Part shown: piece by piece, positions 23,095 through 29,645 of the stretch
Layout: every line of letters starts with the position of its first letter
Numbering within the stretch: the first letter of the stretch is position 1
Source: Escherichia phage vB_EcoM-RPN187
DNA length: 64,000 nt
Sequence record: OL770074.2
Strand: one strand, 5' to 3'
The notes under the pieces: generated by a model
Told to the model about the DNA's origin: nothing
Seen by the model: only the letters and a program-made list of their open reading frames with translations
Database searches by the model: none
Translations under genes and position numbers: made by a program

Positions 23095-23643
23095 TTAACG
23101 AGCCCATTTGATAATTTCTGTAATCAAATTATTACGTTCGCTTGCATTAAATCCTATAACTTTGTTAGCACTATCATGATTAAGTAATTGATACGTTTGG
23201 ATTTTGTTATGAATTGCAAACTCTTCAAAATATGAAATGACTGTATTAAAACCGAATGAAGACAAAGTAATAAGGTCGTCTTCAAAACTTTCAGTCATTT
23301 CGTTACGTGTTAAAATAATTGTGAACACATCATGGTTTTGGCAAAGACGAACATAATCCTGTTCATAAACGTCAAGAACCGAGTCCACATCTTGTCGAAT
23401 ACGTCCATAAACCCAGTTACTAATATATCCACGGTCTAACAGATAAATCTTAGTAGGGTCTAAATAATTCAACATCGTTTCGAAACAGCCAACTTCATTT
23501 CGAGACTTAACATCAAAACGTCCATCAACTGTTCGTTTAGGGAAATCAATCTTTACATATCTTTCACTAATTTCCATTATGTCATTAATGAAAGTTGTTT
23601 TACCAGCATTATCCGGGCCATCTACTAAAATAATTTTAGCCAT
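23095..23643 (-). CDS. thymidylate kinase-like P-loop nucleotide kinase
   Basis: 182 aa; N-terminal ILVDGPDNAGKTT P-loop and LLDRGYIS (TMK DRY-like) motif; SD GAGGAA. Confidence 0.55.
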   Translation of the reverse strand: MAKIILVDGPDNAGKTTFINDIMEISERYVKIDFPKRTVDGRFDVKSRNEVGCFETMLNYLDPTKIYLLDRGYISNWVYGRIRQDVDSVLDVYEQDYVRLCQNHDVFTIILTRNEMTESFEDDLITLSSFGFNTVISYFEEFAIHNKIQTYQLLNHDSANKVIGFNASERNNLITEIIKWAR

Positions 23644-23644
23644 T

Positions 23645-24544
23645 TTATTCCTCGATTACGACATCTTCATATTTAGGTATATTATACGGCGAAGAAATTA
23701 AAGCATTAAAGTAGATGAACTCGCCAAGACCTGGATGGAATACTTCTTCAGGATTTTCGAAGTATTGAATCTTCGGACGTCCTTTAAGAATTTGATAGTA
23801 CTCAGTTTTAGTTGGTTTAAAAATTCGAATCAGCGCTTCTTCAGGATACTTATTTCTGTCGAAGCTATTATTTGGATCGGTTATATAAAGCGGTTGACCT
23901 AATTGAATTGCACATTCAACCACTTGTTCAAAACGATAACACGGGTCACTAATTCGAAATGGATGAAAAATACCATCTAGATGAATAGGAGCCAAATCAC
24001 CTACAAGACGCTGCATGATGGAAGGACGTATAACTTTCTGGGTTACGATAATCTTATTACCATCTGCACCTGCGTTAACCAGCACTTCTTTTTGACGTTC
24101 ATTCAACACAGTAGTTTGAAGTGAACGATTAACCGACAACATGTCGGTTTTTAAGAATTCGTCAATGTAAAAACGTGGTTTATTAGGGTCTGCAGTGATA
24201 TTGAAATTGAATTCTACATCAAAAGCGCCGTCATATCCAGTGATATCTGTGATTAGAAAATCACAATCATAATAAGCAATTAATGAATCAACCACAAATT
24301 CATTTTCAGACCAGAAATATTTACGAGTGTTATACGCGTTATCTTTATACCATAATGGAACAAACTTAAATTCTGGGAAAAGACGTTCGCATTCTTTAAT
24401 ATCAGATGCATTACGTGGATATGTAATAACATCACCTGGATTAGCACGGTGCAAATGAAGTTGGAAGTTGCCATCCTTAAGGATAGCATACTGTCCAGTT
24501 TCATAAGACCGCATACTCAAGATAGGTACGCGGAAAATAGCCAT
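23645..24544 (-). CDS. hypothetical protein at the T4 beta-glucosyltransferase locus
   Basis: 299 aa, ATG overlapping gp42 stop (TAATG); no motif recognised. Confidence 0.5.
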   Translation of the reverse strand: MAIFRVPILSMRSYETGQYAILKDGNFQLHLHRANPGDVITYPRNASDIKECERLFPEFKFVPLWYKDNAYNTRKYFWSENEFVVDSLIAYYDCDFLITDITGYDGAFDVEFNFNITADPNKPRFYIDEFLKTDMLSVNRSLQTTVLNERQKEVLVNAGADGNKIIVTQKVIRPSIMQRLVGDLAPIHLDGIFHPFRISDPCYRFEQVVECAIQLGQPLYITDPNNSFDRNKYPEEALIRIFKPTKTEYYQILKGRPKIQYFENPEEVFHPGLGEFIYFNALISSPYNIPKYEDVVIEE

Positions 24545-25260
24545 TAGTCAAGAAATCCTTTAACATAATCAAAATCACGTTCAAACACATGGGCACTTAC
24601 CATGGTATGAGTATAATCACCAACTTCTACACCACATTCGTTAGCGATATAATGAAGTAATTTTCCTTGGAGATAAAAATCCAACTGCATAACAACAGCA
24701 CAGTTCTGAGAACGCATATGACAGTGGGTATAAAGCTTACCATCACGAATATAATAAGTCACTGAGTCGGTACATGGATATTCAAGTGTTTCGTCTGAAT
24801 CAAGCAAAGCCTGATCAGAACTTTCTAGAATTTGGAACACAACTCTTCGAGAGTTAGGTTTTTCTTTAAGTTCTTTTAGAAGAGTTGGTAACTGGGCCGC
24901 AATGCGAGGACCATAGAAAGTGTTGAAGTTCGCAGGCAAAGCATCTGATTTTGGTTTAGAAATAAATTTAGCGACGTTAGGATATGCCTTAAATGCTTCT
25001 TCTGCATCAGTACCACCAGAAATCATAAATTTCCAGAAATCTTCAGCATATTCATAAGAGATGCGATTAATACGTGGGTCGGTCATTTTGAATGATGAAG
25101 GGGTATCAACAACTACTGTCATAGACCCAATTTCATTACAACGTCCAATACGAGAATCAGTTACGAATTCCGGGTTTTCTAAAATTTCACGATTGACTGC
25201 TTTAAATGCGGATTGAAAATCTGCGGCTTTAATATATTTCATTGTGTTATGTTTTCCCAT
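24544..25260 (-). CDS. 42: dCMP hydroxymethylase gp42 (thymidylate-synthase fold)
   Basis: 238 aa; CTDSVTYYIRD...MRSQN resembles recalled T4 gp42 active-site region; SD GAGGT. Confidence 0.7.
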   Translation of the reverse strand: MGKHNTMKYIKAADFQSAFKAVNREILENPEFVTDSRIGRCNEIGSMTVVVDTPSSFKMTDPRINRISYEYAEDFWKFMISGGTDAEEAFKAYPNVAKFISKPKSDALPANFNTFYGPRIAAQLPTLLKELKEKPNSRRVVFQILESSDQALLDSDETLEYPCTDSVTYYIRDGKLYTHCHMRSQNCAVVMQLDFYLQGKLLHYIANECGVEVGDYTHTMVSAHVFERDFDYVKGFLD

Positions 25261-25278
25261 GTTTACCTCAATACAGTT

Positions 25279-25302
25279 ATTATATACTCAATTCATAAAG
25301 CT
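25279..25302 (-). promoter_or_regulatory. possible middle-type promoter (MotA-box-like AGCTTTA 11 nt upstream of -10 TATAAT) before gene 42
   Basis: box deviates from TGCTT consensus at first position. Confidence 0.3.
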
Positions 25303-25393
25303 TATTTGAATTTCTTAGCGATGTTGATATAACGTAGAGCTTCGGCATCGATACTTCCAAGGACGCTATGAAGGAACGCGTCGACATAGTATT

Positions 25394-25543
25394 CTAGTTG
25401 AACAGGTTCTCTTTAATCACTTTAGCCGCTTTAGTTTCAAACAGGCCCATAAGGGCCTTTTTAAGAATTTGTTCGTTGTTGTTAATTTTAATAGTCAAAA
25501 TCTCTTCGTTAAGTTGGTGATTAAAAGTTTTTCTAGAAATCAT
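25394..25543 (-). CDS. possible small ORF (49 aa) coupled to upstream gene by ATGA overlap
   Basis: own translation MISRKTFNHQL...; contains a GGCCC/GGGCC hairpin, so may be non-coding. Confidence 0.25.
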   Translation of the reverse strand: MISRKTFNHQLNEEILTIKINNNEQILKKALMGLFETKAAKVIKENLFN

Positions 25544-26709
25544 TCTGGGTACCTCAAAGCGTCATCAGAGTTAGTTATATCAATAATAGATATAGAGTTT
25601 TCCGATAACCCATTTTTAGATAACTGACGTTTATAATATCTTTCACAATATGTACACGTCGTCCCGCAGATTTCATTAGCACAATCGAAATCTGGATGTT
25701 TGAACCACCTTTTTTCTAAAAAGCCATCTAACAAAGAGGTTTCAATATTTACCGTATGTGAAAACTCAGTCTCATTTTCAAGAGTGAAAATGGTCTCTAA
25801 AGGCTTCCACAATTCCAACAAATTACCTTCAAATTTTTCGGAAGCATAAGCTTCAAGAACTTTCAAAATGTAGTCTGTGCTACCTGTACGTCCTGAAACT
25901 TTGAATTGAGTGATACCAATATCATTATAAAGTTTCAAATCTTGAGGACGAACAAAACGAGTTCTCAACCAGTTAAATGGGTCTGTATCACGAGCTTTAA
26001 TACAGTGTTGCATTGGATATCCATTTAAGGATTTGGCATCATCTACTGTAACGTCGGTGCTATGGAAAATATAGCAAGAGTCACGATAACTACAATGTGT
26101 TGTATACCCTTTACCAGCATTAGAACAGAACTCATTTACAAGAACTTCAAATATTATATTGTTCTTATTGCAAAACTCTGCTGCACGCTTCAGGAAAGAA
26201 ACTGAACGGTTCTTATGAATTCCACAACAGACCTTTTTGATATTATACTGGTCATGCAAGTATTTGATTTGAGTTACAGCATCGACATGTAGAATTGTTG
26301 AAACTTCAATCTCAATGTCTTTATTGACTTCACGAACAATTTCCATAACAACAGGGTTAGCGATAGTAATACGCCATACGCCTATTGACCAAAGATACTG
26401 AACATAATCCTGAATAGCTTTCTTCTTCCACTCAACTAGTTCTCTTTTTGAACCAGGATTTATCGTGTTGAGTGTATAGTTAAAGCAAATACCTAATTCG
26501 TTACAACGTTTAACGTAATCTTCTAACATCTTTTTGTCAACGTCAGGAAGCCTAAAATCAGGTCTGGCTGCTACAAAAGCCATTTCTCTTGTAGAGCCGT
26601 ATACTTCGTTTATCAAGCTATTAGGATAAGTTTTATTGAGCTCTACGATTTTATCAAGAAGAGCTAAATCAAAATTCGTTCCGATTTTAAAGGTATTCAT
26701 TTTTTGCAT
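25540..26709 (-). CDS. hypothetical protein with weak resemblance to peptidase U32 (PrtC/RlhA/UbiU-type) family
   Basis: 389 aa; Cys-rich EFCSNAGKGYTTHCS and FKVSGRTGS reminiscent of U32 signature/LKIEGR motif; assignment tentative. Confidence 0.45.
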   Translation of the reverse strand: MQKMNTFKIGTNFDLALLDKIVELNKTYPNSLINEVYGSTREMAFVAARPDFRLPDVDKKMLEDYVKRCNELGICFNYTLNTINPGSKRELVEWKKKAIQDYVQYLWSIGVWRITIANPVVMEIVREVNKDIEIEVSTILHVDAVTQIKYLHDQYNIKKVCCGIHKNRSVSFLKRAAEFCNKNNIIFEVLVNEFCSNAGKGYTTHCSYRDSCYIFHSTDVTVDDAKSLNGYPMQHCIKARDTDPFNWLRTRFVRPQDLKLYNDIGITQFKVSGRTGSTDYILKVLEAYASEKFEGNLLELWKPLETIFTLENETEFSHTVNIETSLLDGFLEKRWFKHPDFDCANEICGTTCTYCERYYKRQLSKNGLSENSISIIDITNSDDALRYPE

Positions 26710-26756: not shown

Positions 26757-27158
26757 TTATAGATTCGGTTTATATGATTTAAATGTTTCGAATTCGCCTT
26801 TATTCATAAGAGCTTTGAATTCGTCAGGACGCATAGCTTTGTCGTCGATAATCCAATCATATACTGGTTTATGTGTTAGCAAATTATGGTACTTCAATCC
26901 AATGTTTGCCAAGTTCTGAATCAGACTTGGGAGAATGTCAATTGCTATACGACCCGGACCGACTGACTTCATACCGCGAGCAGTGTAAAGCGTTATGGTA
27001 TGCCCTGCATCATACAGGGCATTAATGGCAGACACCATTTCGACGTCTGGTTTGAAGTTCACGTAATCACGATTGTTATTCCACTCTGTTATACAATCAT
27101 CGACATCAAAACAAAGATTAAGCATGTTTTCTACACGGTGCATTAGATTCGTTCCCAT
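26757..27158 (-). CDS. small HAD-superfamily-like phosphatase (start uncertain)
   Basis: LCFDVDDCIT resembles HAD motif I; alternative starts at M6 (TAATG coupling) or M12. Confidence 0.45.
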   Translation of the reverse strand: MGTNLMHRVENMLNLCFDVDDCITEWNNNRDYVNFKPDVEMVSAINALYDAGHTITLYTARGMKSVGPGRIAIDILPSLIQNLANIGLKYHNLLTHKPVYDWIIDDKAMRPDEFKALMNKGEFETFKSYKPNL

Positions 27159-28828
27159 TGATGAGTGATATCGCCACCGATTGGACGATAGGAAACACCA
27201 GTTTCTTTATCAGTTAGTACCCATTTACCAGGATTTTTTGTAATCAGAGTAGCCGTTACAGGTTCTGCTACGTCATAACTAATAGAGCCGTCCTGAAGTA
27301 CACGGCCCATGTTACGTAATTGCTTAGTCAGAAGTTCCATACCTTTATAATATGCGGCTACCGCTTTAAGTGGATTATTCTTGAAATAACCACCTAATGC
27401 AATCCAGATAATTGCCACTGCCAAATGATGATACTCGTTAAACGAACTCATCTTTCCATATTTGTAAACTAATGGATTGATGTTAATAGTCACATTACAA
27501 GTTGTTTCATCAATAGTAAACTGTCCCCAGGTCGGATTAGCGTTGAATTCATCATACCCTGAAACAGCATAAAGCACTTTAGCTTCGTCATACAATTTTG
27601 GCCCGTAAATCTTGGTTTCACCAAAATATCCACGAGGGTCAATAAACTTGACTTCACCATTATCAGTAATCATAGTATTACTGAAGTTCGGGTCACCATG
27701 AATAACAGAGTACTGTCCCTGAGAACGGTTATGATAACGAATAAGGTGTTCTAAAGCTTGTCTCAACATTGGCTTCAGACGTCCAATCTTAGTGTAGTTC
27801 ACATGTGTGATTTTACCAAATGAATCAATCAATGGTTGAATACTTTCACAACGATCAATAACTTTCGTATAGAATTCTTTAGTGAAATCACGACGAACAG
27901 TTTCAGGACTTACAAAATAAGTGTCTGTGCTGAATTTCAGTGCATCTAAAATTGCATCAACAATTTGTGGACGAGCAAGACTTGATTTGGATTTAATATA
28001 TTCAAATGCCGGCTTACCTTTAATGCGTTCCATTTCAAAGTTATTTTCATTAACAGAAACTAACTGAGGAACTGAATCTGATTTCACTTTAAGATACCAT
28101 GAAATCTCATCTTTCTGAAGAGCTCGGCCCTGTTCGGTTAATGCGAATTTAGTTACAGTTTCTTCACCAATTTCAACTGCGTTAAAACTACGATTAAGTT
28201 CACGAACTTCATGAGCTTTTTCAAGTTTAGGCATATCACCTAAATCAATTAGATTCATAAGCTCTGATTTATTGAATGCGCTGCCGTAAAGGAATTCTAC
28301 GAAATCACGTCCTTTGCAGTATTCATGAATTTCCTCATCAGTAGAACCCATATAGAATTCCCAGTCTTTGAACTGATAAATTCCTACAACATTACCACCT
28401 GTTGAACCTACGTTAGTGATATTTTCACCGTCGAAATTATATCGACATTCGTCGCCCTTAACATAGATTGCGTTAACATTCCAAGACCACGAACCAAAAT
28501 CAGGAATAATATCACACCAGTTAACAATTACATTATGGCCGTCTAAATCTTTGTGCAATTTAGCAAGAGCATAAGCAGAACCATATGCTTCATCAACTGT
28601 ACGAATAGTCACATTGAACCCTTCTTGCTCACAATAAGCTCGAACAGTTTCAGCAAATTTTGAATGAACTACTACAATAATTTCATCTGCGCCAAGGTCA
28701 GAATAAATTGTATACAAATTGCTCAGAATAGTGTCTTGTTTATAGTTAACAAGCACCTTAGGAATATGATGCGTTATTGGATACAAACGAGTTGCCAGTC
28801 CAGCACCAAGAATAACAGCTTTTTTCAT
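27143..28828 (-). CDS. bifunctional sugar-phosphate nucleotidyltransferase (N-terminal) / APH-like kinase (C-terminal)
   Basis: 561 aa; N-terminal ILGAGLATRL (GxGxR NTase motif); C-terminal HGDPNFSNTMI and FIDPRGYFG (Brenner/APH kinase motifs); SD GAGGA. Confidence 0.7.
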   Translation of the reverse strand: MKKAVILGAGLATRLYPITHHIPKVLVNYKQDTILSNLYTIYSDLGADEIIVVVHSKFAETVRAYCEQEGFNVTIRTVDEAYGSAYALAKLHKDLDGHNVIVNWCDIIPDFGSWSWNVNAIYVKGDECRYNFDGENITNVGSTGGNVVGIYQFKDWEFYMGSTDEEIHEYCKGRDFVEFLYGSAFNKSELMNLIDLGDMPKLEKAHEVRELNRSFNAVEIGEETVTKFALTEQGRALQKDEISWYLKVKSDSVPQLVSVNENNFEMERIKGKPAFEYIKSKSSLARPQIVDAILDALKFSTDTYFVSPETVRRDFTKEFYTKVIDRCESIQPLIDSFGKITHVNYTKIGRLKPMLRQALEHLIRYHNRSQGQYSVIHGDPNFSNTMITDNGEVKFIDPRGYFGETKIYGPKLYDEAKVLYAVSGYDEFNANPTWGQFTIDETTCNVTININPLVYKYGKMSSFNEYHHLAVAIIWIALGGYFKNNPLKAVAAYYKGMELLTKQLRNMGRVLQDGSISYDVAEPVTATLITKNPGKWVLTDKETGVSYRPIGGDITHQWERI

Positions 28829-28869: not shown

Positions 28870-29013
28870 CTAGTTAAAGCATTCATACTTTGCTTGTAGT
28901 CCAATCATAATCCATCCGATTATAAGAGTCGGAATCATTACTGGAGCCGTTAAGCTCCAGTAGATAGTCATGACAAGCATCAATAGTAAAAGTCCTATTG
29001 TTATTGCTTTCAT
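28870..29013 (-). CDS. possible small two-TM membrane protein (47 aa), coupled to the SIS gene stop
   Basis: own translation MKAITIGLLLLMLVMTIYW...; ATG overlaps upstream TGA. Confidence 0.4.
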   Translation of the reverse strand: MKAITIGLLLLMLVMTIYWSLTAPVMIPTLIIGWIMIGLQAKYECFN

Positions 29014-29645
29014 TGTTCGCCTCGTAACATGGCACCTAGTGCACCGCCAGGGTGGAACTTAAGGAAGTCATTAGAGGTAAATCCACGTTCAGACGAAAGG
29101 TTGATAGCAAACGTATCGATAAGCGCTAACAACAATGTAGTGGACATGGTCGGAGCCAGAGAATTCTCATCAACCTCTACTGCGATGCCTGTACAGAACG
29201 TATAATCAAAAAGAGCTTCGTATTCTTGTGGAATGTCCGGGTTACAATGCAACAGAATCTGTTTGACGTTCGGACGAATCATTTTAAGATGCTTAGCCAC
29301 GCCTATCATTTCTTCAGTTTTACCAGAACGACTAATATGAATCAACACATCATTAGGCGCAATGAATCCTGCATCACCGTGAGAATAATGTCCAGTGTTC
29401 AAGTACATACTCGGGATACCGAGTGAAGCAAATGTCTCAGAAGCTTTAGTTGCAATATTAGCATTCTTACCAACACCTGTAATAATTACTCGGCTTTCAT
29501 AATTACTAAGTCCAGGACGTCGAAGAGTTTCTAGAATAGCATTATAACGAGCAGGGTTTTGACTAATTACTTTGGCCATAGCGGCCAAAGAAGAAGCTTG
29601 TTTTATGATTGCGTCAATAGCGATAGTAATAGGAGTAGTTTTCAT
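29010..29645 (-). CDS. SIS-domain sugar-phosphate isomerase (KdsD/GutQ-like arabinose-5-phosphate isomerase)
   Basis: 211 aa; ITGVGKNANIA and ISRSGKTEE SIS motifs; SD GAGAG. Confidence 0.7.
   Translation of the reverse strand: MKTTPITIAIDAIIKQASSLAAMAKVISQNPARYNAILETLRRPGLSNYESRVIITGVGKNANIATKASETFASLGIPSMYLNTGHYSHGDAGFIAPNDVLIHISRSGKTEEMIGVAKHLKMIRPNVKQILLHCNPDIPQEYEALFDYTFCTGIAVEVDENSLAPTMSTTLLLALIDTFAINLSSERGFTSNDFLKFHPGGALGAMLRGEQ

Follow-up and report, generated by a model that had tools for sequence, protein, structure and literature searches.

A divergent U32-family protein in the cytosine-modification island of an RB69-type phage as a candidate oxygen-independent nucleotide hydroxylase

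The U32 gene and the island around it

The 64,000-nucleotide stretch of Escherichia phage vB_EcoM-RPN187 DNA analyzed here (OL770074.2; hereafter, the window) belongs to a Mosigvirus, a T4-like phage of the RB69/JS09 type. Between the genes for gp43 DNA polymerase and UvsX, its minus strand carries a block corresponding to RB69 gp55-gp45, in the order SIS-domain isomerase, nucleotidyltransferase/kinase, HAD phosphatase, U32-family protein, broken open reading frame (ORF), ThyA homologue, glycosyltransferase and Tmk-like kinase (Table 1). The subject of this study was the U32-family protein, the orthologue of RB69 gp50. An initial annotation had described it as a cysteine-rich protein of 389 aa, weakly similar to the TIM-barrel iron-sulfur (Fe-S) enzymes of the U32 family, co-transcribed with the sugar-activation genes and possibly responsible for a further chemical step in DNA modification.

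The ORF was found exactly as described, and the plus strand across it was closed by many stops. The protein contains 13 cysteines (3.3% of its residues; the value for the remaining long ORFs of the window is 1.3%), and 10 of them were invariant in an alignment of 27 sequences. The true start of the gene is probably M4 at position 26700, giving a protein of 386 aa, because most orthologues begin with MNTFK and because a Shine-Dalgarno-like GGCGAG is better spaced for this second ATG than for the ATG at 26709.

The U32 gene, the sugar-activation genes and the ThyA homologue are closely packed and read in one direction, and the U32 stop overlaps the next start (ATGA). Co-transcription is plausible from this arrangement, although promoter and terminator scans gave no more sites than were found in shuffled sequence and so lent no further weight to this part of the initial annotation.

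PHROG 5757, named "peptidase", covers the protein end to end. In GenBank, 221 phage genomes contained the gene with an identity of at least 80%, and its sequence was identical in Escherichia phages vB_EcoM-RPN187 and F2. When the window was compared with 15 other T4-like loci, the U32 protein showed 83-89% identity, whereas the values were 64-81% for the DNA polymerase, 73-85% for the ThyA homologue and 51-72% for the glycosyltransferase. By this measure, the U32 gene is strongly constrained in nature, though laboratory data suggest that it is dispensable in air.

Table 1. Features of the modification island, with positions in the window.
Feature	Position	Strand	Basis or remark
SIS-domain arabinose-5-phosphate isomerase, RB69 gp55 orthologue	29010..29645	minus	Pfam SIS, PHROG 5670; PMC13326640
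Bifunctional nucleotidyltransferase/kinase (RB69 gp52:53 / AfhE-like), makes UDP-arabinofuranose	27143..28828	minus	Pfam NTP_transferase and kinase-like hits; PMC13326640
HAD-type phosphatase (RB69 gp51 / AfhF-like)	26757..27158	minus	PHROG 1238; PMC13326640
U32-family protein, RB69 gp50 orthologue, 389 aa (389 codons)	25540..26709	minus	ORF and translation
First candidate ligand set of the U32 protein, C195-X10-C206-X5-(C/H)212-X23-C236, codons 195-236	26002..26127	minus	129 representatives
Second candidate ligand set of the U32 protein, C343-X4-C348-X3-C352-X2-C355, codons 343-355	25645..25683	minus	C-terminal extension
Truncated ORF of 49 aa, start overlaps U32 stop	25394..25543	minus	Frameshifted remnant of a 79-aa gene intact in Bas47
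ThyA-superfamily 5-hydroxydeoxycytidine monophosphate (5hodCMP) synthase, RB69 gp48 orthologue, flavin/O2-dependent	24544..25260	minus	Pfam Thymidylat_synt; PMC13326640
Glycosyltransferase, RB69 gp46:47 orthologue, predicted arabinosyltransferase 1 on 5-hydroxycytosine (5hoC) in DNA	23645..24544	minus	PHROG 3891; PMC13326640 Table 1
Thymidylate-kinase-like nucleotide kinase, RB69 gp45 orthologue	23095..23643	minus	PHROG 761; PMC13326640 Table 1

Family membership, fold and conserved cysteines

Residues 97-289 of the protein matched Pfam Peptidase_U32 (PF01136) over model positions 2-192 of 233 with E=6.4e-11, and the score of 42.4 bits was well above the gathering score of 22.4. An AlphaFold2 model built from 27 homologues (predicted local distance difference test score 89, predicted template modelling score 0.89) consisted of a TIM barrel with a C-terminal extension. 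The Foldseek comparison that had been proposed with the initial annotation gave as the top Protein Data Bank (PDB) match a U32 protein, Mk0906 (5D88; E=6.4e-7, TM 0.69 normalised to target), the single U32 structure solved so far. When the PDB was searched by sequence, the U32 protein gave no match, and 5D88 was recovered by Foldseek only. The family assignment is thus firmer than initially thought, and the protein is a true but very divergent Peptidase_U32 member.

The phage proteins form a separate subfamily, for which a word-indexed search gave 282 matches and an exhaustive search gave 447 cluster representatives with E<=1e-30. Hidden Markov model (HMM) scores against the four E. coli U32 paralogues did not exceed 13 bits. 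Among the NCBIfam subfamily models, the UbiU equivalog scored 19 bits (cut-off, 440) and none of the others matched. Orthology to a characterised subfamily was found by neither NCBIfam, hhalign nor HMM scores, and the signal in the profile comparison with these paralogues was too weak for assigning a subfamily.

Two conserved four-ligand sets were found (Table 1), consistent with Fe-S binding, for which the initial annotation had suggested looking. Across 129 subfamily representatives, the first set was conserved as C195 in 127, C206 in 129, Cys in 76 and His in 52 at position 212, and C236 in 129. The cysteines of the second set were present in 121-123 of the 129 (approximately 95%) and were invariant in the 27-sequence alignment. 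The exchange of Cys for His at one position, together with near-total conservation elsewhere, points to metal ligands. The four-Cys motif of U32 proteins, CX6CX15CX3/4C (CX6CX16CX38C in UbiU), binds [4Fe-4S] (PMC6747719), and hhalign placed C206/C212 on the signature Cys pair of RlhA, although this match was weak (probability 72%). From its sequence, the first set is a candidate [4Fe-4S] site of the U32 domain. The second set may be an Fe-S (or Zn) site; in the regions that could be aligned, the E. coli U32 proteins showed no equivalent of it.

Part of the second set, C348-X3-C352-X2-C355 with an aromatic residue (Tyr) before the last Cys, copies the spacing of the radical S-adenosylmethionine (SAM) motif, CX3CXphiC. 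A radical SAM assignment was rejected because there was no Radical_SAM Pfam hit and because the motif, which is accompanied by a fourth conserved Cys (C343), is located at the very C-terminal end of the protein. The protein also gave no Thymidylat_synt Pfam hit and does not belong to the ThyA-superfamily 5hodCMP synthases, of which it would be a functional analogue and not a family member.

Current database names, namely, "peptidase", "U32 family peptidase", "collagenase-like PrtC protease", "putative protease" and "hypothetical", mostly speak for a U32 peptidase or collagenase, and a decaying passenger that takes no part in DNA modification could also be imagined. Either is highly improbable. 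The peptidase label of the U32 family rests on old work with a few proteins. The gene is among the most conserved of the island, its ligand sets are kept in 129 distant representatives and its genomic context is fixed. Few U32 members have an established molecular function, and the characterised ones have been linked to hydroxylation (PMC6747719, PMC10990095); none of the latter is a protease.

The modified base and the question of a further step

RB69 and Acinetobacter phage DLP3 DNA contains mono- to tri-arabinosylated 5hoC and not 5-hydroxymethylcytosine (PMC13326640, Lee et al.). Contrary to what older annotation suggests, the island is therefore not a 5-hydroxymethylcytosine island; its base is 5hoC. 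The ThyA homologue of RB69, gp48, makes 5hodCMP, carries a flavin and takes the oxygen from O2, as demonstrated by 18O2 labelling (PMC13326640); in vitro confirmation of 5hodCMP synthesis of the gp48 type is credited there to He et al. The same paper, citing He et al., describes the synthesis of uridine diphosphate (UDP)-arabinofuranose as complete with the isomerase, the AfhE-like kinase/pyrophosphorylase and the AfhF-like phosphatase. A dCTPase is predicted in these phages by computational assignment, and the lack of canonical cytosine in their DNA has been measured (PMC13326640).

The view that the U32 protein has no role in nucleoside diphosphate (NDP)-sugar synthesis, expressed in the initial annotation, agrees well with the completeness of the UDP-arabinofuranose pathway without it. 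The further chemical step proposed in the same annotation lacks such support. Phage DLP3 has the whole pathway and no U32 gene, and the DNA of RB69, which has the gene, and that of DLP3 both contain arabinosyl-5hoC and differ only in the number of arabinose residues (PMC13326640). The cassette was likewise present and the U32 gene absent in Dhakavirus JS98 and Acinetobacter phage Maestro. The evidence therefore points to a second, O2-independent route to the existing C5 hydroxylation of a cytosine nucleotide rather than to an extra step. Since DLP3, Maestro and JS98 have the pathway without U32, the protein is not needed for the chemistry observed in aerobic laboratory cultures.

The locus of Escherichia phage JS98 (L061; loci are numbered L001 onward) contained AfhE-like, AfhF-like and Tmk-like genes, the ThyA homologue and a glycosyltransferase, and it lacked both the SIS isomerase and U32. 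Presumably, JS98 uses the host KdsD/GutQ for arabinose 5-phosphate. If the U32 protein provides the O2-independent route, JS98 would need O2 for its modified base.

Prephenate-supplying genes beside U32

The shikimate pathway begins with DAHP (3-deoxy-D-arabino-heptulosonate 7-phosphate) synthase, and prephenate is the product of chorismate mutase. In Winklervirus and Kanagawavirus, the gene located between those for the U32 protein and the ThyA homologue matched CM_2 with 44.6 and 38.5 bits (cut-off, 27), and in these two annotated records it overlapped its neighbours by 4 nt, start on stop, on both sides. With an HMM built from these genes, chorismate mutase was found in this slot in 15 of the 18 T4-like loci. 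When 50,697 phage records were searched by tblastn, 48 matches to chorismate mutase were obtained; all 40 matches listed adjoined the ThyA homologue, and several overlapped U32.

In uncultivated phages unrelated to the T4-like ones, fusions of DAHP synthase to chorismate mutase were adjacent to U32 or within a few genes of it (L037, L039, L040, L041, L050, L068), DAHP synthase alone was found near U32 in L005 and L025, and stand-alone chorismate mutase was found in L045/47/48/52/54 and L066. The catalytic residues of chorismate mutase (R11, R28, K39, S84 and Q88) were kept in all of them. This linkage, in most cases direct adjacency, occurred in at least four lineages besides the T4-like one and hence in at least five phage lineages overall. 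Neither DAHP synthase nor chorismate mutase has any use in a pentose pathway that we are aware of, whereas a U32 hydroxylase does need prephenate. All the characterised U32 hydroxylases (RlhA, TrhP and UbiU/V) work without O2, require prephenate and depend on Fe-S (PMC5727448, PMC6599085, PMC10990095, PMC6747719).

The truncated ORF of the window occupies the slot in which related genera have chorismate mutase. Relative to the intact 79-aa ORF of Bas47 and L011, this broken small gene (25261-25545, minus strand) has 2 additional nt in the window and 1 additional nt in phage SSE1. Both changes lie at one AAAG(AG)AACC spot, which looks like an indel hotspot. The possibility that the 79-aa Mosigvirus gene is a diverged chorismate mutase was rejected because the protein had no Pfam or NCBIfam hit and because Yersinia- and Enterobacter-type phages carry the gene alongside a true chorismate mutase.

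U32 loci outside the T4-like phages

ORFs were called and clustered in 56 U32 loci from IMG/VR, metagenomes and GenBank and in 9 loci from genome assemblies, with 10-kb flanks. The ThyA homologue was present in 18/18 T4-like loci. By contrast, no ThyA-family gene was found within 10 kb in 36 of the 37 non-T4 loci. The exception, L027 (L027:5509-9975, on a 230-kb IMG/VR contig), carried a canonical-looking thymidylate synthase (Pfam, 243 bits), which adjoins a YfbR-like HD 5'-deoxynucleotidase gene, an AfhE-like gene and U32.

Full-length homologues of the window glycosyltransferase, which corresponds to the base-proximal glycosyltransferase of RB69, were found in these same non-T4 loci with 23-27% identity and E down to 3e-15, along with AfhE-like homologues (25-30% over >520 residues) and SIS isomerases (27-37%). 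HAD phosphatases, Tmk-like kinases, MazG-like pyrophosphatases, dUTPase and dCMP deaminase also occurred there. Altogether, U32 was accompanied by a gene resembling deoxynucleoside monophosphate (dNMP) kinases, a glycosyltransferase and sugar-activation genes in 36/37 non-T4 loci. A minimal arrangement, MazG - Tmk-like - glycosyltransferase - U32, was found in L032, L038, L042 and L055. It parallels the T4 scheme of dCTPase, base-modifier, dNMP kinase and glycosyltransferase, with U32 in the base-modifier slot.

An unbiased Pfam tally covered 133 genes no more than three genes away from U32, taken from 30 dereplicated non-T4 loci. The most frequent families were Thymidylate_kin (8 genes), DAHP_synth_1 (7), CM_2 (5), SIS (5), DNA polymerase III alpha (4) and dCMP deaminase (4); no thymidylate-synthase or oxygenase family was among the 25 most frequent. 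These gene contents suggest that U32 may have displaced the ThyA homologue non-orthologously in the non-T4 loci, and they were counted in favour of a U32 nucleotide hydroxylase.

Because U32 always travels with sugar-activation genes, the serious rival is a role in the sugar branch, with the protein acting, in line with the label "sugar or heterocycle reductase" used by Lee et al., as a reductase, dehydratase or other redox enzyme on arabinose phosphate or an NDP-pentose, perhaps to give a minor or condition-specific sugar variant. AfhE-like, SIS, HAD and sometimes NAD epimerase genes stand beside U32 in every lineage, and Thanatos, a phage with U32, has been reported to contain a "deoxypentose". 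DAHP_synth_1 is, moreover, also the fold of KDO-8-P (3-deoxy-D-manno-octulosonate 8-phosphate) synthase, and the combination of SIS, HAD and nucleotidyltransferase genes resembles a Kdo-type pathway. However, identification of the DAHP_synth_1 neighbours as KDO-8-P synthases was rejected: in NCBIfam, the protein scored 237 bits on the DAHP-synthase model and 63 bits on the KDO-8-P-synthase model, an approximately fourfold difference, and it is fused to CM_2. The T4-like phages keep only chorismate mutase, an enzyme without a function in pentose chemistry. Sugars are not known to be substrates of any U32 enzyme, the arabinose of DLP3 is the same without U32, and UDP-arabinofuranose synthesis does not require the protein. 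A sugar-branch role would leave unexplained the linkage to chorismate mutase and DAHP synthase, the cassettes with U32 and no ThyA homologue, and the unchanged sugar of DLP3, and we give it little chance.

Another alternative, which we consider unlikely, is that the protein is a prephenate-dependent hydroxylase acting on a polymer, that is, on cytosines of newly made phage DNA or on host or phage tRNA or rRNA to tune translation. RNA polymers are the substrates of RlhA and TrhP, the only U32 enzymes that hydroxylate pyrimidines, and the linkage to chorismate mutase and DAHP synthase would suit any prephenate-dependent hydroxylation. Against a polymer, the commonest Pfam family among the neighbours is a nucleoside monophosphate (NMP) kinase, and its occurrence together with MazG/dUTPase and dCMP deaminase marks a pathway that works on mononucleotides before replication. 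For an RNA target in particular, the synteny with DNA glycosylation genes, conserved across unrelated phages, would be hard to understand. As for DNA, unmodified cytosine should not reach it, given the predicted dCTPase and the lack of canonical cytosine.

Several non-T4 loci showed other arrangements. A four-gene block consisting of a GP88-family protein (PF17338), a guanylate-kinase::SAM-methyltransferase fusion, a protein of ~267 aa and U32 was found in anaerobe assemblies and one IMG/VR contig (L073:3044-7137, from a Phocaeicola faecalis isolate, and L070, L071, L072, L074 and L051). The combination of a putative hydroxylase with an NMP kinase and a methyltransferase suggests a 5-methoxy-pyrimidine nucleotide. 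In L072, a PD-(D/E)XK nuclease and a primase lie near the block, and the context is possibly mobile or defence-related.

In phages with DNA polymerase III alpha (L004:9447-11939, L006/L007:8279-10601 and L056; one contig of 466 kb), U32 directly follows dCMP deaminase and is itself followed by a conserved Pfam-less protein of ~250 aa (58% identity between L004 and L006) with a faint epimerase-like hit; uracil-DNA glycosylase, thymidylate kinase and a MazG/dUTPase_2-like gene are nearby. The U32 substrate in these phages could be dUMP rather than dCMP. In L005 (L005:8545-12804), which belongs to a metagenomic phage contig of ~80 kb, the genes flanking U32 are an AfhE-like kinase/nucleotidyltransferase, a DAHP synthase without chorismate mutase and an NAD-dependent epimerase/dehydratase (RmlD/GalE-like), and these neighbours suggest a sugar other than arabinose.

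Distribution

The ThyA homologue was found in 373 GenBank phage records. Phages with the ThyA homologue only included 57 Acinetobacter, 20 Rhizobium and several Agrobacterium phages, and these hosts are aerobes. For the 221 GenBank records with U32, every host identified in the tallies and among the matches listed belonged to Enterobacterales or Shewanella, which are facultative anaerobes. In genome assemblies (metagenome-assembled genomes or isolates), the U32 clade was found under the labels Erysipelotrichales, Oscillospiraceae, Gastranaerophilaceae, Tannerella and Angelakisella and in the Phocaeicola faecalis isolate. Contigs with U32 only came from Oscillospiraceae, Erysipelotrichales, Tannerella, Phocaeicola and Angelakisella. 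Most of the labelled taxa are strict anaerobes, and an O2-dependent hydroxylase could not function in them.

Proposed function

From the family membership, fold, conserved ligand sets, neighbourhoods and distribution that were observed, we infer the substrate, oxygen donor, anaerobic role and Fe-S binding of the protein. We judge it slightly on the probable side that the U32 protein is an anaerobic, prephenate-dependent hydroxylase of dCMP at C5, that is, an O2-independent isoenzyme of the flavin/O2-dependent 5hodCMP synthase.

According to this proposal, dCMP would be supplied by the phage dCTPase and bound by the U32 protein together with prephenate. The cytosine ring would undergo a two-electron oxidation at C5, the electrons leaving via one or two Fe-S clusters as in the scheme proposed for UbiU/V (PMC10990095). 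Prephenate would be decarboxylated to phenylpyruvate, and the released hydroxide would quench the ring at C5. The resulting 5hodCMP would then be phosphorylated by phage nucleotide kinases; RB69 gp159 is active on 5hodCMP (PMC13326640). After incorporation of the nucleotide by the polymerase, arabinosylation would follow on DNA, as has been demonstrated for DLP3 (PMC13326640). In air, the U32 route would be redundant with the ThyA homologue, whereas without O2, as in the gut lumen, it would be the sole source of the required cytosine nucleotide. In related phages, chorismate mutase and/or DAHP synthase would serve to increase the amount of prephenate available.

A number of observations weigh against this proposal. 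The relation to the known hydroxylases is very remote, with hhalign probabilities of 72% for RlhA, 10% for TrhP and 6% for UbiU, and the spacing of the first ligand set differs from the four-Cys motif of the family, only C206/C212 being aligned. The known pyrimidine-hydroxylating enzymes of the family act on RNA polymers and not on mononucleotides, and the constant company of sugar-activation genes fits the sugar branch as well. The absence of ThyA at the non-T4 loci applies to 10-kb flanks and not to whole contigs. Dhakavirus coliphages lack U32 although their host lives in the gut, and the correlation with host and ecology comprises few independent events. By Pfam, the Mosigvirus of the window has no chorismate mutase of its own; having lost the gene, it would depend on the host PheA/TyrA, as the E. 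coli U32 enzymes do. No biochemical or genetic test of gp50 was found in the literature searched, and Lee et al. label it only as a "sugar or heterocycle reductase" (PMC13326640). In full-text literature searches, no paper was found that connects U32 with the hydroxylation of phage DNA; the searches did not extend to He et al. 2026 and Mahler et al. 2025, and prior discovery is possible.

A broader reading is possible, although we would not back it on balance. This subfamily may be a new class of nucleotide hydroxylases that work without O2 and may contain the first U32 enzymes to act on a free mononucleotide. Many uncultivated phages of strict anaerobes (phages of gut Bacteroidota and Firmicutes and jumbo phages) may have no other source of a 5-hydroxypyrimidine for glycosylation, with prephenate supplied by phage DAHP synthase and chorismate mutase. 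If so, anoxic viromes and uncultivated phages of anaerobes would hold a large hidden reservoir of DNA hypermodified with glycosylated 5-hydroxypyrimidines.

If the dCMP hydroxylase proposal is true, it would explain how phages whose cytosine is fully converted to arabinosyl-5hoC replicate in the anoxic gut despite the O2 requirement of the only known hydroxylase; such replication bears on phage therapy with Mosigvirus-type phages. It would also give a function to a gene called "peptidase" in hundreds of phage genomes and explain the odd shikimate-pathway genes (chorismate mutase and DAHP synthase) in phages. No U32 hydroxylase has yet been reconstituted in vitro, one reason being the nature of the substrates (rRNA, tRNA or a polyprenyl lipid); in vitro activity assays for them are still to be developed (PMC10990095). 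A soluble system acting on dCMP would make the mechanism with prephenate as the oxygen donor directly testable in vitro.

Comparison with known systems

RlhA, which forms 5-hydroxycytidine-2501 in E. coli 23S rRNA in an O2-independent, prephenate- and Fe-S-dependent manner (PMC5727448), has several features in common with the phage protein: it belongs to the same family, carries out the same C5 hydroxylation of cytosine as is proposed here and was the best hhalign match among the E. coli paralogues. However, RlhA is a protein of 653 aa that acts on one rRNA residue, whereas the phage protein differs in its third and fourth ligands and has an extra C-terminal Cys4 motif.

At its C-terminus, TrhP has a U32_C domain, which Pfam did not detect in the phage U32 protein. 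Its hhalign match was weak, and its substrate is a tRNA uridine. It forms ho5U34 in tRNA independently of O2 but dependent on prephenate and is paired with the O2-dependent TrhO (PMC6599085). As proposed for gp50 and gp48, a U32 enzyme and an unrelated O2-dependent enzyme thus serve the same C5 hydroxylation of a pyrimidine.

A similar relation exists in ubiquinone synthesis, where the flavin/O2 hydroxylases UbiI/H/F are backed by the U32 Fe-S hydroxylases UbiU/UbiV; these hydroxylate ubiquinone precursors, with prephenate identified as the oxygen donor by 18O-shikimate labelling (PMC10990095). The UbiU-UbiV heterodimer contains two [4Fe-4S] clusters (PMC6747719), whereas the two conserved ligand sets of the phage protein lie in one chain; if both bind clusters, they would parallel the two of the heterodimer. 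UbiU/V differ from the phage protein in having a lipid quinone as the substrate and in requiring both the heterodimer and the SCP2 protein UbiT.

The 5hodCMP synthases (RB69 gp48, DLP3 gp80 and the HY126 enzyme) make the product proposed for U32, and the gp48 gene lies two genes from U32 within one operon-like block. Their fold and cofactor are unrelated, O2 is strictly their source of oxygen, and they occur in phages of aerobes without U32. T4-like phages also carry both the O2-dependent NrdAB and the O2-independent NrdDG for ribonucleotide reduction; nrdD is present in the phages considered here (PMC13390438). The likeness of NrdAB/NrdDG to gp48/gp50 is an analogy of strategy only, since the chemistry and the protein families differ. 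The location of the U32 gene two genes from a flavin/O2-dependent cytosine C5 hydroxylase fits exactly the pairing pattern of TrhP with TrhO and of UbiU/V with the flavin hydroxylases.

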